Assembly: GCA_964442705.1 (NCBI GenBank)
Contig: CAYUAQ010000006.1
Location: 1-60,921, forward strand
From: an uncultured Desulfobacteraceae bacterium
GTDB taxonomy: Bacteria > Desulfobacterota > Desulfobacteria > Desulfobacterales > JALSRD01
Direction of reading: 5' to 3'
DNA: 60,921 nucleotides
In this document: positions 53,984 through 60,921 of the stretch, piece by piece
How positions within the stretch are numbered: the stretch's first letter is position 1
Layout of the letters: each line of letters starts with the position of its first letter
Translations under genes and position numbers: made by a program
Notes under the pieces: generated by a model
What the model was told of the DNA's origin: nothing
Seen by the model: only the letters and a program-made list of their open reading frames with translations
Database searches by the model: none

Positions 53984-54001
53984 GGGCTTCAGTCCCTGCC
54001 G

Positions 54002-54271
54002 CTATCGAATATACAGCGGAATATTGTTGATCAGGTTCTCGGTGAACGTCACAACCATCTGCAGCATCCATGGGAAGAAAATGAGCATGGCGACGGCCAC
54101 GGCGATCATCTTGGGGATGAACACCAGGGTCATTTCGTTTATCTGCGTGGCCGCCTGAAACATGCTCACCAGCACGCCGGCCACCAGTCCGAAGAGCAGG
54201 ACCGGCGCCGCCAGCAGCACCGCCAGCTTGATGGCTTCGAAAAAAAATCCTGTGACAAATTCCGGCGTCAT
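54002..54271 (-). CDS. fliQ: Flagellar export protein
   Basis: FQAATQINEMTLVFIPK. Confidence 0.96.
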   Translation of the reverse strand: MTPEFVTGFFFEAIKLAVLLAAPVLLFGLVAGVLVSMFQAATQINEMTLVFIPKMIAVAVAMLIFFPWMLQMVVTFTENLINNIPLYIR

Positions 54272-54283
54272 GGCGTTGTTTTC

Positions 54284-55096
54284 CTATGCGAAGCTCTTGA
54301 CCAGTGACCCCACGATCAGATACCACCCGTCGGCCAGCACAAAGAGCATCAGCTTGAAAGGTAGTGAAATCATCACCGGCGGCAGCATCATCATACCCAT
54401 GGACAGCAGTACGCTGGCCACCACCATGTCGAGAATCAGGAACGGAACGTAGAGCAGAAAACCGATCTGAAAGGCGGTTTTCAACTCACTGATGATGAAG
54501 GACGGTATCAGCACCGAAGTAGGCACATCCTCGATGTTGCGGGGTTTCTTGAGTTTGGAAATCTTGACGAAAAGCGCCAGATCCTTTTCGCGGGTCTGAT
54601 GATACATGAACCTGCGAATGGGCTGTACTGCCTTTTGCAGGGCCTCCTGCTGGGAAATCTTCTTCCCCAGGAAAGGCTTTACGGCCTGGCTGTTCACCTG
54701 CTGCCAAACCGGCGTCATGATGAAAAAGGTCAGAAACAGCGCCAGCCCCAGGATGATCTGGTTGGGCGGCATCTGGTGGGTTCCCAGGGCCTGGCGTAGA
54801 AGTGAAAGCACGATGGCGATCCGTGTGAAAGACGTGACCATGATCAGGATGGCCGGTGCCAGGGACAGAATGGTCAGCAGGACGAAAATCTGCAAAACCA
54901 CGGTCATGTCTCCCGGATCATCAGAGTTCCGGTAGTCCACCTTGACCAATGGGAAGCCCTGTTCTTCCGTCTGGGCCCGGCAGACCCCGCCGGCAACGGT
55001 CGACAAAACGGCGACCAGCAGAACGATCGTCCAGAAAGCCCTTGCGCGCTGCCTTGACTTTGCGTATCCAACGGCCTGTCTGGTGGTCACTGTCAC
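54284..55096 (-). CDS. fliP: Flagellar export protein
   Basis: TSFTRI..QMPPNQ; [11 protein letters not shown]; [16 protein letters not shown]. Confidence 0.97.
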
Positions 55097-55464
55097 TTTC
55101 CTGTTTTCCCTGTGTGCTTGCGTAACTTGTTTAAATAGCTCTGAAAACTGTCCGCCGACCCGGCCTCATCGGACGGTGCCATCTTCCGGAGGGCTTCCGC
55201 GTCCTCGATCTTATCCAGCAGACTGATGCGGTCGCCGGTGACACCCAGCACCAGCACCGACCCAGGCACTTCCAGCAACATTATGTTTTTTTTCACGCCC
55301 ACGTACTGGCTGGCCAGGATACGCAGTCCCGACCCCCCCGCGCTGATCCGGCGATTCAGAAAACGCCTGGCGAACCAAGCGACCAGCAGCACCGTCCCCA
55401 GCACCAGCACCAGGGCGACGGTCATCTTGAGTCCACTGGACAGCATGTCGGGCGTGTAAGTCAT
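55093..55464 (-). CDS. fliO: Flagellar biosynthesis protein FliO
   Basis: One TM followed by [20 protein letters not shown]; lies between fliN and fliP. Confidence 0.88.
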
Positions 55465-55841
55465 CGCAGCGTCTCCACCCTCTCCATGGGGCTGATGATC
55501 TCCGTGAGGCGGATGGCATACTTTTCCTTGCTGACCACGACCTCCCCTTTGGCGATCAGGCGGTTGTTGGCCAGGATTTCAAGGTTCTCTCCCGCACTCT
55601 TGCCCAATTCGATAACCGATCCCTGGCCCAGCTTGAGGAGTTCGTTGATCTGCATGCGGGTACGTCCCAGTTCCACCCGGATTTCCAGCGGGATATCCAG
55701 TATGAAATCGATCTTATCTTCCGGGTCATGACGGGGCCCGGCGGATTCACTGCCGGTGGCCTCTTCCGGCTCGGCTTCAAAGCCCCCGGCCGGTTCCGGC
55801 GTCTGATTAGAGTGGTCCGTATCTTGTTTAAAATCCGACAT
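55461..55841 (-). CDS. fliN: Motor switch protein
   Basis: ILDIPLEIRVELGRT..GSVIEL..GEVVV. Confidence 0.94.
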   Translation of the reverse strand: MSDFKQDTDHSNQTPEPAGGFEAEPEEATGSESAGPRHDPEDKIDFILDIPLEIRVELGRTRMQINELLKLGQGSVIELGKSAGENLEILANNRLIAKGEVVVSKEKYAIRLTEIISPMERVETLR

Positions 55842-56823
55842 CTGCTCTGCGCCTCCTGTGGCGATTTATCTTCTCGGCAATTTCAACAGCCCGGCTTCCC
55901 TTGATGATACCGGGAAATCCCCGGAATTTGGGCACGCTGTTGACCTTTAGGGTGACAAAGTCCTTTGGCCCGGTGCCCAGCCGAATGATATCGCCCCGTT
56001 TGAGATTCAGAATATCCCGCACCGGCCGCGTGGTACGCCCCAGTTCGGCCACCACATCCAGCTCGGCGTCTTTGATCAGTTCACGGATTTCGCGGCCCCA
56101 CTTCCGCTCGATGTCTTTTTCGCGCATGTAGCTGGAGGAAAGCTTTTCTTTGATGGGTTCCAGCATGAGGTAGGAGACACAGAAGGCGATGGCCCCTTCG
56201 AATTCTTCGGCCTTGACCGAAAAGGAGGCTACCAGGATCATCTCAGACGGCCCGAAAACGTGCACGAACTCCGGTTTGGTTTCCAGCTTTTTAGACTCCA
56301 CGGTCGAGGGGCTGACCACCTGCCAGGCTTTTTCCAGCGCCTGGTTGAGCTCGGCATTCACTTTTCTGGCCATAGTCAGTTCGATGAGGGTAAATTCCCG
56401 AAGTTTCCCGAAAGGCTTCCCGGTGCCGCCGAACATGCAGTCGATGAAGGAAAACACCAGGCTTGGCTCCATGACGGTCAGTGCCGTGTTGAGCAGTGGC
56501 TCCATGGACAGGGTATCAAAGAGAGTCGGCGTGCTGCAGCCACCGATCAGCTTGTCAAAGGTCTTGACTTCCTTGGTGTCAAACACCACCCCGACTTCCC
56601 TCTGCAGGAGGGCCGACAGGGATTTCCGGAAAAGTGAAGCAAACTTGTCAAAGACCTCATCCAGAGCGCTGAATTCATCCTCCAGCTGCACTCTCTTGGA
56701 AGTCAGGTCATAAGCGGTGGCTTGGGTTTTCTTCTCTTTTTCCGCGTCTAGATCGACGTCGCCGTTGGCCATGGCCCCCAGCAGGGCGTCGATCTCTTCC
56801 TGTGACAGTATCTGATCGGCCAT
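55828..56823 (-). CDS. fliM: Motor switch protein
   Basis: ILSQEEIDALL CheY-binding peptide; MFGG; REFTLIE; C-terminal SpoA domain. Confidence 0.93.
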   Translation of the reverse strand: MADQILSQEEIDALLGAMANGDVDLDAEKEKKTQATAYDLTSKRVQLEDEFSALDEVFDKFASLFRKSLSALLQREVGVVFDTKEVKTFDKLIGGCSTPTLFDTLSMEPLLNTALTVMEPSLVFSFIDCMFGGTGKPFGKLREFTLIELTMARKVNAELNQALEKAWQVVSPSTVESKKLETKPEFVHVFGPSEMILVASFSVKAEEFEGAIAFCVSYLMLEPIKEKLSSSYMREKDIERKWGREIRELIKDAELDVVAELGRTTRPVRDILNLKRGDIIRLGTGPKDFVTLKVNSVPKFRGFPGIIKGSRAVEIAEKINRHRRRRADVGF

Positions 56824-56836
56824 TTTCCGTAACCGG

Positions 56837-57298
56837 CTACTGGATGACAAACTCTGTGAAGTAAATGTGGGTCACCGGTGCCTCTTTTAGAAACCCGTTG
56901 ATCTTCTTCATGATCTGCTGACGCAGGGCGATTTTACCCTCCACCGTATGCAATTCAGCGTATTTCTTGGTCGGCAGAATCATCAGGATGCTGTCCTTGA
57001 TTTTGGGCAGGTGATCCTCGACCTGTTTGACCATTTCGGCGTTTTTGACTTCCAGTTCCATGGTCACTCTCAAGAAGCGTTTACCGCCTTCGTCGGCCAG
57101 GTTGACGATAAAGGGATCCAGGTGGAAGGTCGGCCCCATTCCCGCCTCGGCTTTTTTCTCGGCCTCCTTGGCAGAGGCCTGCACATTCTGGACGCCGAGG
57201 GAGGCCAGTTTCTGCCACATGATGAAAAAGCCTGCCCCCAGACCGCCCAATACGACGACGGAACTTAAGATAACAATGATGAGTACTTTTTTTGACAT
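56837..57298 (-). CDS. fliL: Flagellar basal body-associated protein
   Basis: One TM; FIVNLAD; EGK..LR; IYFTEFVIQ; GGAGG SD. Confidence 0.93.
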   Translation of the reverse strand: MSKKVLIIVILSSVVVLGGLGAGFFIMWQKLASLGVQNVQASAKEAEKKAEAGMGPTFHLDPFIVNLADEGGKRFLRVTMELEVKNAEMVKQVEDHLPKIKDSILMILPTKKYAELHTVEGKIALRQQIMKKINGFLKEAPVTHIYFTEFVIQ

Positions 57299-57299
57299 T

Positions 57300-58091
57300 T
57301 CAGTTTTCCTCCGAAACCAGTATGATCTCAACCCTTCTGTTTCCGGCCCGGCCCTGGGCGGTAGCGTTGGAATGCAGGGGCCTGGAATCTCCATATCCCA
57401 CAGCCGACATGCGTACCGGCAGAATCGGTCCGGCTTTCATCAAAAACTTCAGAACGTTTACCGCACGCGCCACCGAGAGTTCCCAGTTGGAGGGATACAG
57501 TTCGGTGGCGATGGGAACATCGTCGGTGTGCCCCTCTATACGGATGCGGTTGGGCAGCGTTTTCAGCTTGGCGGAGATCCTGTCCAGCACGGCATATCCG
57601 CGCGGATCGATGCGGGCCTTGCCCGGCTGGAAGAGGATGCTGTTTTCAAGAGACAGATTGACGCCTTCACTGGAAAAACGGGCCTGGATTTCGGGGTCGG
57701 CCTCCAGTTCCCGCATGAACTGCATAAGTACCGGTGACTTCTGGCTGCCGGCGGCGGCCTGCGCCTGCTGCAGCGCATTGCGCAGGGTTTCGTCGCCCGG
57801 CCGCTGTTTTTCATCCTTGTCCCCTGTCGGCTGGGTTGCATAGTCAGGCGGAGGAAGGTCCGAAACGGCTATGGACACCCGCCGGCCGGACATCATCATG
57901 CCCAACGCACTTTGCAGGTTCTCGATAAGGCCCTCAGTGCGGTTGATGTCCAAGGTGCTCATGGAAAAAATAAGTACGAAAAAGACCATCAGCAGTGTCA
58001 TCATGTCGTTGAAAGTGGTCAGCCAGGTGCTGCCGTTTTTCTCCTCGGCTTCCTGGCTGAAACGTAGTTTTCCCCGCGTGGATCTCATCAT
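57300..58091 (-). CDS. motB: Stator B subunit with canonical Asp (MotS/PomB-like)
   Basis: WLTTFNDMMTLLMVFFVLIFSMS; OmpA-like EGHTD..NWELS..RA..NRRVEI. Confidence 0.92.
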   Translation of the reverse strand: MMRSTRGKLRFSQEAEEKNGSTWLTTFNDMMTLLMVFFVLIFSMSTLDINRTEGLIENLQSALGMMMSGRRVSIAVSDLPPPDYATQPTGDKDEKQRPGDETLRNALQQAQAAAGSQKSPVLMQFMRELEADPEIQARFSSEGVNLSLENSILFQPGKARIDPRGYAVLDRISAKLKTLPNRIRIEGHTDDVPIATELYPSNWELSVARAVNVLKFLMKAGPILPVRMSAVGYGDSRPLHSNATAQGRAGNRRVEIILVSEEN

Positions 58092-58813
58092 GGGGCCTCG
58101 CTGGTCTCTCTGCGGAAAACGATTTCGACGCGCCGGTTTATGGCACGGTGAGCGGCGCTGTCATTGTCCGTCAGGGGCTGAAATTCCCCGAACCCGGCCG
58201 CCGACAACTTGCCGGGGTTCACCCCGGCCCTTTCCGTCAGGAATCTCAGCACGTTCACGGCCCTGGCGGTGGACAGTTCCCAGTTGGAGGGAAAACGCCG
58301 GGTGCTGATGGGGCGGTCATCGGTATGGCCTTCGATGCGCACCAGGTGCTTACCGGCCTTGATGACGCGTCCGACCTTCAGCAGCAGCGGCATGGAGGCC
58401 GGCCGAACCTGGGCGGAACCGGTATCAAACAAGATGGCATTGGCAAGCCGCATGACCAGGTTCTTGTCGGTAAAAGCGATATCCACACTGTCCTCCAGCC
58501 CCAGCCGCCGGGCCTGGGTGATCACATCCCGGAAGATATCGGCCAGACTGCTCTTTTCGTCCACCATATCGACCGAGTCCGGCAGCGTGATGTCGCCCTT
58601 TTCAAGCTTTACGCCTCCGCTGAAGATGCTGACCGCCAGATTGAACGATTTCACGAACCGCGTCACCTTGGATTGCTGCATGGTGGAGAACGAGCACAGC
58701 ATGATGAAGAAGCACAGCAGAATCAGAATGAAACCGGTGTACACGATTTCCCAGCCGCTGCCCAGGGAACCGCCGTCGTCATGCTGTTTTCTGCTCCTGC
58801 GTCTCGGGAACAT
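58088..58813 (-). CDS. motB: Stator B-subunit paralogue lacking the TM Asp
   Basis: WEIVYTGFILILLCFFIMLCSFS; intact OmpA-like EGHTD..NWELSTARA..NRRVEI. Confidence 0.85.
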   Translation of the reverse strand: MFPRRRSRKQHDDGGSLGSGWEIVYTGFILILLCFFIMLCSFSTMQQSKVTRFVKSFNLAVSIFSGGVKLEKGDITLPDSVDMVDEKSSLADIFRDVITQARRLGLEDSVDIAFTDKNLVMRLANAILFDTGSAQVRPASMPLLLKVGRVIKAGKHLVRIEGHTDDRPISTRRFPSNWELSTARAVNVLRFLTERAGVNPGKLSAAGFGEFQPLTDNDSAAHRAINRRVEIVFRRETSEAP

Positions 58814-58816
58814 GGA

Positions 58817-59596
58817 CTAGGCCTCGACCTCTTCCGCCAGCTCTCTGGCCATCTCTTTGGGTGAGATGAAGGCTTTGAGCTTCTGTTCTATGATACGATG
58901 ATTTTCACCCGACTGAATGGCCAGTACACCCTCTATGACCATCTGTTTCGACAGTACTTCTTGCTTGCTGAGGGTTTTGAGCTTGCCCGCCATGGGCAGG
59001 AACAGCAGGTTGGCCAGGATGGTGCCGTAAAAGGTGGTCAGCAGCGCCACGGCCATGGGTTCGCCGATGGCACTGGGGTCCTCCATCTGCATCAGCATCT
59101 GAACAAGACCGATGATGGTGCCCAGCATGCCGATGGCCGGCGCGAAGGTGCCCATGGTGGAAAATATCTCCGAACCCAGCTTGTGCCGTTCCTGCAGAGC
59201 GGCCACTTCCGTGCTCATCACGTCCTCGATGGCGCCGGACTCCATGCCGTCGATGGCCATCTGGATACCTTTGGCCAGAAAGGGGTCTTCGATCTCCTGC
59301 AGCTGCGATTCAAAGGAAAGGATGCCCTCCTGGCGCGCTTTCTTGGCAAAATCCACGATGATCGGAATGAGTTTGCTGGCCGGCTGTGCTTTGTACAGGA
59401 ATACATTCTTAGCCACTCCAAAGACGCTCATTACCTCCGACAGCGGGTAGGCGATGAAGGTGGCGCCCATGGTGCCGCCAATGACGATCATCAGGGACGG
59501 ATAGTTGATGAACCAGGTGCCGGAACCCCCCATCAGAATGGAGCCGGCCACCAGGCCGCCGGCCACCAGGAGCCCAATGAAGGTGGTAATATCCAA
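58817..59596 (-). CDS. motA: Stator A subunit (PomA/MotP-like)
   Basis: TTG start after AAGGAG; ARQEGILSFE; APAIGMLGTIIGL; MAVALLTTFYG. Confidence 0.94.
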   Translation of the reverse strand: MDITTFIGLLVAGGLVAGSILMGGSGTWFINYPSLMIVIGGTMGATFIAYPLSEVMSVFGVAKNVFLYKAQPASKLIPIIVDFAKKARQEGILSFESQLQEIEDPFLAKGIQMAIDGMESGAIEDVMSTEVAALQERHKLGSEIFSTMGTFAPAIGMLGTIIGLVQMLMQMEDPSAIGEPMAVALLTTFYGTILANLLFLPMAGKLKTLSKQEVLSKQMVIEGVLAIQSGENHRIIEQKLKAFISPKEMARELAEEVEA

Positions 59597-59683
59597 AGCA
59601 ACTCTCCTTTGAAGCAACGACTTGGAAGTTTGCGAGCTGCCGTCATCCGGCAGGGTTCGCAATGCTACAGCACCACATGTTTG

Positions 59684-59699
59684 AGCAAAATATGTGCCG
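59684..59699 (-). promoter_or_regulatory. Sigma-54 promoter of the motA operon
   Basis: Minus strand cGGCACatattTTGCT (GG-N10-GC) with an AT-rich tract upstream. Confidence 0.75.
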
Positions 59700-59997
59700 G
59701 ATTGGATTTGCTGCCCGAATCGAATGGAAGAAAAAATTAGAACACTCTAACTTATAGAATTTCCTAGTTAATTTAATAACCAAGGCGGCCATGAAAAAAG
59801 GCAAAGCGCGTGGAGGGCAACCGAAAGCCGGCCAGGGGGGCGGGCCACCGTCAAAATGATCGCCGGTTGTCAACACTTTGACGTGCAGCGGCAGGGCAAT
59901 CGCAAGTAACATGACCCGATCTGCCGGGCGGGGGCATCGGCAGACCGGGCGGATCAGTGCATCGAAAGACAACGGTCAGGCCAGGGGCGTTATGTCC

Positions 59998-60852
59998 CTA
60001 CCGTTTGATGTTGATGAGTTCGGCCAGCATTTCATCACTTGTGGTGATGACGCGCGAGTTGGCCTGAAAGGCACGCTGGGCGGTAATCATGTTAACGAAC
60101 TCAGTGGCCAGATCGACGTTGGAAATTTCAAGGGTGCTGGAAATGACGTTGCCGAAATCACCGTTGCCGGGCACACCGAGGGTGGCATCACCGGAGTCCG
60201 CGGTCTGCCGCCACAGGTTGTTGCTCATCTTTCCCAGGCCGTTGATGTTGGCAAACTCGTAGAGGGCCACCTGGTACAAGGCCTGGGGCTGACCGTAATT
60301 GGGGTCCGTATCGGGAAGCGTGCTGTCGACACCGTAAAAAATGCCGTTGTTATCAACGGTAATGCTGTCCCACTGATCCAGGTCGACACTGATGTCCTCG
60401 GGATCGTAGGGAGTGTCCGGATCCGGAATGCCGTTGTTTAGAATATCAAACCCCTGGACGTTCATGCCGGACAGGGTAATCAGGTTGCCGTCCTTGTCAA
60501 AAGAGAAATCCCCGGCCCGGGTGTAGAAAGACTCGGTATCGTTCTCGACGCGGAAAAAACCACCGCCGTTGATGGAGAGATCGGTGGCGTTGCCGGTGGA
60601 CTGCAGCGGCCCCTGGGCCCAGTCGAAGCGGAGTCCCACCACGGCAACACCGTTGCCGATCTCGTTGCCGGAAAATCCGCTGTTGACGTTGGAGGATACG
60701 ATGTTGGTGGTCTGGTTCAGAACGTTGGCAAAAGACAGGGTCGAGCTTTTAAAGCCGGGCGTATTGACATTGGCGATGTTGTCGCCGATGGCCTCCATGT
60801 ATTGCTTGTTGGCGTTGAGGCCGGTGACTCCCGAATACAGTGATCGCATCAT
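59998..60852 (-). CDS. flgE: Short flagellar hook protein (FlgE-type, 284 aa)
   Basis: MRSLYSGVTGL..IGDNIANVNTPGFKSS; TGNATDLSINGGGFF; YTRAGDF; LEISNVDLATEFVNMITAQRAFQANSRVITTSDEML; GGAGG SD. Confidence 0.82.
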   Translation of the reverse strand: MMRSLYSGVTGLNANKQYMEAIGDNIANVNTPGFKSSTLSFANVLNQTTNIVSSNVNSGFSGNEIGNGVAVVGLRFDWAQGPLQSTGNATDLSINGGGFFRVENDTESFYTRAGDFSFDKDGNLITLSGMNVQGFDILNNGIPDPDTPYDPEDISVDLDQWDSITVDNNGIFYGVDSTLPDTDPNYGQPQALYQVALYEFANINGLGKMSNNLWRQTADSGDATLGVPGNGDFGNVISSTLEISNVDLATEFVNMITAQRAFQANSRVITTSDEMLAELINIKR

Positions 60853-60921
60853 GGTTTGCTTCCTCCGTGGTTGAGTGGCGTGTTGATTTCGATTTCAAGC
60901 GACCGGCGCGCAGCTTGCGGC

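Follow-up and report, generated by a model that had tools for sequence, protein, structure and literature searches.

A MotB paralog without the ion-binding aspartate, encoded between motA and motB in a flagellar operon of an uncultured Desulfobacteraceae bacterium: a candidate asymmetric stator

Stator Genes of the Locus

We analyzed a window of 60,921 nucleotides (the whole stretch studied here; positions 1 to 60,921 of contig CAYUAQ010000006.1, GenBank assembly GCA_964442705.1) from an uncultured Desulfobacteraceae bacterium, in which the flagellar stator gene motA is followed by two genes of the MotB type. All genes and features described below are located on the minus strand, and their positions are those of the window. 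The sole A subunit of the flagellar operon was encoded by motA (58817–59596, 259 amino acids from a TTG at 59596; Pfam MotA_ExbB, 1.5e-30). The proximal MotB-type gene, designated here B′, was located at 58088–58813 and encoded a protein of 241 amino acids with the Pfam domains MotB_plug and OmpA; it lacks the aspartate of the transmembrane helix. The distal gene, B (57300–58091), encoded a canonical MotB of 263 amino acids, which carries this aspartate as Asp29 (MotB_plug, 59 bits; OmpA, 72.7 bits).

The motA stop codon TAG (58817–58819) is followed by TCC and then by the B′ start codon ATG at 58813, while the stop codon TGA of B′ and the start of B share an ATGA overlap (58088–58091). As read from the sequence, all three genes are translationally coupled, and this start/stop coupling of motA, B′ and B fits production of the three proteins in similar amounts. 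A promoter/terminator scan detected no convincing terminator within the motA–B′–B stretch; its 13 weak sites compare with 7.8 ± 2.5 in shuffled sequences, and the site inside B′ had a poor T tail.

The B′ Protein

The N-terminal transmembrane motif of B′ reads G-S-G-W21-E22-I-V-Y-T-G27-F-I-L-I-L-L. In the BLASTP alignment of B′ with B (33% identity, E 2e-42), Gly27 stands opposite Asp29, and the codon GGT (58733–58735) thus occupies the position of the ion-binding aspartate (D32 in Escherichia coli MotB), which is absent from B′. The residue next to the tryptophan (W+1) is Glu22, encoded by GAA (58748–58750). A preliminary description of the window had read the glycine and the glutamate at these places, and every coordinate in it was correct.

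Both Pfam domains of B′ scored above the cut-off, MotB_plug (PF13677) with 43.9 bits (cut-off of 24) and OmpA (PF00691) with 68.3 bits. Among the NCBIfam equivalogs MotB, MotD and MotS, the best model was MotD with 152.1 bits, which does not reach its cut-off of 283; the canonical B, with 189 bits, was also below the MotD cut-off.

An AlphaFold2 model of B′, built from 30 homologs, had a mean predicted local distance difference test (pLDDT) value of 73.9. It consisted of a transmembrane helix (residues 20–41; 58691–58756), a plug-like helix (residues 47–63; 58625–58675), a disordered linker and a periplasmic OmpA-like domain, the peptidoglycan-binding domain of the MotB type (residues 89–234; 58112–58549), in which pLDDT was mostly 83–95. 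The top Foldseek matches of the periplasmic domain were MotS-C of Bacillus subtilis (9ljl, E 4e-16), PomB-C of Vibrio (3wpw) and MotB of Helicobacter pylori. Also among the best matches was the structural-genomics entry 3khn from Desulfovibrio vulgaris, titled "putative MotB like protein DVU_2228".

In the alignment of the 30 sequences, K49, F53, S56 and F57 of the plug-like helix were invariant, as were Asp165, Arg184 and N226-R-R-V of the peptidoglycan-binding domain and the residues of the motifs HTD, S-x-A-R-A and NRRV. Together with the OmpA score, these invariant residues bear out the earlier claim that the peptidoglycan-binding domain of B′ is intact. The gene is located beside motA within the flagellar gene cluster. 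B′ is a conserved paralog of the flagellar stator B subunit without the ion-binding carboxylate.

Conservation and Selection

Of 8000 candidates scored in a search with B′ against 5.8 billion proteins, 7968 matched at E ≤ 1e-10; in the databases, the homologs are named "chemotaxis protein MotB" or "flagellar motor protein MotB". In the best 120 homologs (down to ~51% identity), the column of the aspartate contained glycine in 119 sequences and serine in one, and the residue after the tryptophan was glutamate in 117 and glutamine in three.

The dN/dS ratio (nonsynonymous to synonymous substitution rates) against the nearest ortholog was 0.095 for B′ and 0.110 for B, with dS of ~1 being near saturation. 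Judging from these ratios, purifying selection on B′ is as strong as on motB.

The codon GGT is only one base from GAT, which would favor a sequencing or assembly error at Gly27; B′ might also be regarded as a decaying duplicate. An aspartate in close homologs, looked for as the sign of such an error, was present in none of the 120. A contig of the X1 run spans 58353–59662 without any difference, although X1 may be the source sample itself. Another contig, from X2, covers 58502–58814 with two differences, one of them at 58616. Both the error and the decay are further contradicted by the low dN/dS ratio of B′ (0.10) and by the presence of its family in many families of the phylum, and we consider them practically ruled out. 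The view of B′ as a conserved subfamily rather than the product of a point error, already favored in the preliminary description, is upheld by the homologs and by the dN/dS ratio.

Gene Order in Related Genomes

Of 41 genomes of the same order, which represent 38 families and include that of the present bacterium, 12 had the arrangement motA–B′–motB with an aspartate-less middle gene, usually followed by fliL; a MotB-family match was present in only 22 of the 41. The proximal motif was W-E-x-x-Y-[ST]-G in G000–G003, G019, G027 and G031, and W-E-M-V-Y-A-S in G017. A second, tryptophan-less proximal type, S-L-F-I-I-L-L-A-F-F-I-L-L-N, was found in G005, G006 and G008, while in the proximal copy of G015 the OmpA motifs were degenerate as well.

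The same trio was present at no fewer than three of 80 named loci (L035, L060 and L069), which belong to metagenome-assembled genomes (MAGs) of Desulfobacteraceae, Desulfobacterales and Syntrophaceae; the 80 loci were collected with generic OmpA-domain patterns and are mostly ordinary MotBs, and so they are no census of B′. When 401 genomes of the phylum were searched with the N-terminal 71 residues, ten matched, and nine of these ten had the order motA–proximal–distal; the query is insensitive to diverged B′, and 10 of 401 is therefore a lower bound. The gene order, whose conservation the preliminary description had put forward for testing, is thus conserved well past this genus and reaches other families of Thermodesulfobacteriota.

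In a library of 1.84 billion representatives, the aspartate was absent in at least 26 of the best 150 sequences, as classed by eye. These 26 comprised 16 of the WE/WQ type (tryptophan followed by Glu or Gln), in which G, S, A or P replaces the aspartate, one with Asn and nine without the tryptophan.

Several loci deviated from the common pattern. At L025 (2181–2897, minus strand), the proximal aspartate-less copy has degenerate OmpA motifs (no HTD and no NRR) and the distal MotB is intact; the proximal copy is here a more reduced partner subunit. In the proximal gene of L009, arginine replaces the otherwise invariant tryptophan of the transmembrane motif (G-G-R-E-I-V-Y-S-G). A variant of the trio was found in a Candidatus Troglogloeales (Nitrospirota) MAG, in which the aspartate-less copy is followed by a single open reading frame (ORF) of 480 amino acids (L044, 3680–5122). 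This ORF encodes a MotB transmembrane helix with the aspartate (W-M-L-T-F-G-D), flanked on either side by an OmpA-like domain; a fusion or a missed stop codon could explain it.

Phylogeny of the Proximal and Distal Copies

Two sets of proximal, distal and single MotB sequences were used for the trees: the first comprised 88 rows, with 48 of 85 single MotBs and with duplicate loci of the same genes dropped, and the second comprised 66 rows. In the more careful analysis, one branch set off all 22 proximal copies from the canonical MotBs (ultrafast bootstrap 98; Shimodaira–Hasegawa-like approximate likelihood ratio test, SH-aLRT, 90), and the same branch received support of 99 and 97 in the quick trees. 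The distal copies fell among canonical MotBs. Since the proximal copies are grouped together and the distal ones are not separated from canonical MotBs, B′ is an old paralog and not a recent local copy of B.

The proximal copies of L121 and L123 retain the aspartate, and that of L120 has asparagine instead; these three form a well-supported group (99/96). L121 and L123 represent two families of the phylum with the aspartate in both tandem MotBs, as in Aquifex. L120 is close kin of L121, and the asparagine in its proximal copy points to a recent loss.

The best tree, rooted on canonical MotB, contained three losses of the aspartate: in the tryptophan-less clade, in the WE/WQ clade and in L120. 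The well-supported branches require at least two. In the distal copies, the aspartate was kept in 20 of 20. The aspartate was thus lost more than once, and each time from the copy that is invariably accompanied by a canonical one.

Distal MotB and MotA in Loci of the WE/WQ Type

The transmembrane motif of B reads W23-L-T-T-F-N28-D29-M-M-T-L-L, in which Asn28 and Asp29 are encoded by AAC GAC (58005–58010). Asparagine just before the aspartate is specific to the partners of WE/WQ-type B′: it was present in 14 of the 20 distal MotBs, exactly those of the 14 WE/WQ-type loci, and in none of the six other distal copies. In 78 single MotBs, this position was occupied by alanine (34), serine (26), glycine (16), phenylalanine (1) or threonine (1), and never by asparagine. 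The preliminary description had called the motif of the distal copy canonical; this holds for the aspartate, but the asparagine before it makes the motif not fully so. The pairing of Asn-Asp in B with B′ of the WE/WQ type may reflect co-adaptation of the two helices, or else shared descent alone.

The distance from the transmembrane helix to the motif EGHTD also differed between the two copies: in six loci of the WE-G type, it was 140–141 residues in the proximal and 145–165 in the distal proteins.

As to the A subunit, Trp50 and Gln192 of MotA (in the numbering of the 281-residue ORF) were present in 14 of 14 WE/WQ-type loci and were rare in 81 MotAs of loci with a single MotB. Both residues lie in loops presumed to be periplasmic; they are examples of the positions given by the comparison of MotAs, all of which were specific to this clade and could be marks of the lineage.

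Other Genes of the Operon

On the minus strand, a rod/hook gene of the FlgE/F/G type (59998–60852) is followed by a spacer of 335 bases and then by motA, B′, B, fliL, fliM, fliN, fliO and fliP. The full ORF of motA occupies 58817–59662 and encodes 281 amino acids. The TTG at 59596 is likely its true start, because it is preceded by the ribosome-binding site AAGGAG (59604–59609) and opens an N-terminus, M-D-I-T-T-F-I-G, like that of the orthologs. In NCBIfam, the top models for MotA were MotP and PomA, each below its cut-off.

The fliL gene (56837–57298, 153 amino acids; Pfam FliL, 7.3e-27) begins with an ATG at 57298, one base beyond the stop codon of B; this start was chosen from orthologs. 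The remaining genes of the operon, fliM, fliN, fliO and fliP, were located at 54284–56850 (Pfam FliM, FliMN_C, FliO and FliP). The region between the rod/hook gene and motA (59597–59997) contains an ORF of 109 amino acids (59643–59972) with neither a Pfam nor an Rfam match, and it probably carries an operon-internal promoter region. No RNA family of Rfam was matched in 54000–60921.

Two further motA/motB pairs were found in G000 outside the flagellar operon, on contig C3 (L001 and L004). The aspartate is present in the B transmembrane helices of both (W-V-V-T-F-G-D and W-T-I-A-D). With these pairs, three MotA genes and four MotB-type genes are encoded in the organism.

Comparison with Known Stator Systems

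B′ resembles the canonical MotB, PomB and MotS of MotA5MotB2 stators in its single N-terminal transmembrane helix, plug helix, linker and C-terminal OmpA-like domain of the MotB type, as well as in its position right after motA in a flagellar operon. It differs from them in the absence of the transmembrane aspartate (Gly27 here; G, S, A, P or N in relatives), and it belongs to a separate clade and invariably has a canonical MotB as its neighbor.

Laboratory mutants of E. coli MotB with asparagine in place of the aspartate have a neutral residue at the ion site and still assemble; they are engineered, non-functional and dominant-negative. B′, by contrast, is natural, conserved and encoded together with a wild-type partner. 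Stator helpers of the MotY type are soluble or lipid-anchored OmpA-like proteins without the transmembrane helix and plug of MotB; B′ falls outside this class by its MotB_plug transmembrane region.

In Aquifex aeolicus, according to Takekawa et al. (2015, PMC4525482), an operon motA/motB1/motB2 encodes two MotBs with transmembrane regions 97% identical. This operon shares with ours one motA followed by two motB genes whose periplasmic regions are unlike each other. The transmembrane helices of Aquifex are nearly identical and both bear the aspartate, whereas here the two helices differ and one is without it. An Aquifex-like state is represented in the present phylum by L121 and L123.

For the gliding motor AglR5-AglQ-AglS of Myxococcus, a pentamer of A-type subunits is predicted to surround a heterodimer of two different B-type chains, whose linkers are long in one chain and short in the other (PMC11761067). 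Unequal linkers are likewise present here, B having the longer and B′ a fixed shorter one. On the other hand, AglQ and AglS are TolR-like and non-flagellar, and the AglR5QS arrangement is itself a prediction.

No description of an aspartate-less MotB paralog was found in the literature within reach, subscription journals and supplementary files lying outside it. The words "aspartate", "D32", "two MotB" and "Desulfo" did not occur in a 2025 paper on MotAB evolution (PMC12505986).

Composition of the Stator

We infer, with a probability of about one half, that a single MotA ring encloses a mixed axle of B′ and MotB, which would have only one ion site. B′ would share its mRNA with MotA and the canonical MotB, as predicted from the operon, and would sit beside MotB as the second axle chain inside the MotA pentamer (A5-B-B′). 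The one ion site of such a stator, Asp29 of B, would replace the two alternating sites, and B′ would supply the second axle helix, the second plug and, on a shorter linker of fixed length, the second cell-wall anchor. The preliminary description had suggested a heterodimeric stator with either one ion site or a displaced carboxylate; the one-site heterodimer is the best reading of our data, and the displaced carboxylate is not supported, for the reasons given below. Support for the heterodimer is indirect and comes from synteny, gene coupling, the conserved transmembrane helix and plug, the repeated loss of the aspartate in the proximal copy only and the model of the B/B′ dimer.

Among 13 diverged loci, the mean pairwise identity of B′ was ~0.5 in the transmembrane helix and 0.36 in the whole protein. 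In FliL of the same loci, the relation was the reverse (~0.27 in the helix and ~0.40 in the whole protein), and in the canonical B, the helix had ~0.7. A helix of B′ more conserved than the whole protein, together with the invariant residues of the plug, agrees with a helix that is surrounded by protein, as it would be within the MotA ring.

The dimer model of B and B′ had a median score of 0.69 over three runs, whereas the highest score among three controls was 0.00; 58 of 80 solved complexes and two of 110 mismatched pairs attained this mark. At least 79% of the contacts agreed between the runs, and the pLDDT of the partners was at least 71. The interface included both transmembrane helices (residues 21–47 of B and 22–46 of B′) and both peptidoglycan-binding domains. 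Glu22 of B′ and Asn28 of B were among the touching residues; Gly27 and Asp29 were not named among them.

Several points weigh against the mixed axle. The dimer model may have passed merely through likeness to solved MotB homodimers, and as it was made with our own alignments, its calibration holds only roughly; moreover, the modeling covered the dimer of B and B′ alone. The residues of the peptidoglycan-binding interface are nearly identical in the two proteins (W-E-L-S-x-A-R-A-V-N-V-L in both), and so this domain does not enforce the heterodimer over B2 and B′2. The transmembrane helix of B′ is less conserved than that of B, and the Asn-Asp signature of B may co-occur with the B′ type by shared descent alone. 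In the accepted stator model, two aspartate sites alternate and ten ions pass per turn (PMC12890895; 10.64898/2026.04.14.718414). In favor of the mixed axle, the latter, a simulation preprint, gives at least one protonated (neutral) aspartate as a prerequisite for rotation; a permanently neutral glycine or serine need not block turning.

The nearly identical interfaces also make homodimers look possible, and B′ could instead form A5B′2 units with the shared MotA, acting as a non-conducting placeholder, a brake or a structural support around the rotor. B′ retains the transmembrane helix, the plug and the peptidoglycan-binding domain, which are all the features of MotB for assembly and anchoring, and the aspartate kept in the basal L121 and L123 and in MotB1 and MotB2 of Aquifex (PMC4525482) suggests that alternative B subunits for one MotA are possible. 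A brake, however, could hardly be regulated under fixed co-translation with B, and an inert competitor for rotor sites should cost torque, yet B′ is kept at a dN/dS of 0.10. The proximal copy of L025, with a degenerate anchor and an intact partner, is hard to explain for a unit of B′ alone, as it would leave B′2 without any known activity; we consider such homodimers rather doubtful. Alternatively, B′ could stay outside the MotA ring as a membrane-anchored peptidoglycan-binding accessory with a MotY-like function, scaffolding or positioning the stators, for example via the periplasmic domain of MotB or via FliL. Its intact peptidoglycan-binding domain of the MotB type, the proximity of fliL and the predicted contacts with B between the two peptidoglycan-binding domains agree with this role. 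It nevertheless appears improbable, because the transmembrane and plug helices are the most conserved N-terminal parts of B′ and still match MotB_plug, a mere lipid anchor such as the transmembrane segment of FliL is far less conserved, and the B′ family descends from stator subunits with the aspartate.

The displaced carboxylate, by which B′ would still carry ions via Glu22, is highly improbable, in spite of the presence of this glutamate in nearly all of the closest homologs. Besides the three sequences with glutamine among those 120, glutamine occupies this position in six of the 14 WE/WQ-type loci, and the 16 WE/WQ-type representatives include six with glutamine and one with valine. The glutamate is not retained in the second aspartate-less clade, and residues 22–23 of B′ face B in the dimer model, not outward like Gly27 and Asp29.

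Significance

In the current model of torque generation, the two MotB aspartates load and release ions in alternation, and ten ions pass per turn of the MotA ring. A conserved MotB paralog that is under selection, has no aspartate and always lies between motA and an ordinary motB puts the need for both sites to a natural test. Should B and B′ occupy the same MotA ring, a ready-made single-site stator would be available for cryo-electron microscopy and for measurements of ion flux and torque–speed relations; if B′ forms inert units of its own, they would be stator placeholders of a new, built-in kind. In annotation, the database name "MotB" for the B′ proteins hides the difference. As a tentative proposal, somewhat short of an even chance, many relatives of this bacterium among sulfate reducers and syntrophs may swim with an asymmetric 5:1:1 stator, in which an axle of MotB and B′ would have a single aspartate, B′ would hold a permanently neutral second site and about half of the ions would be used per revolution. 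If so, the two alternating aspartate sites of the 5:2 model would not both be required.

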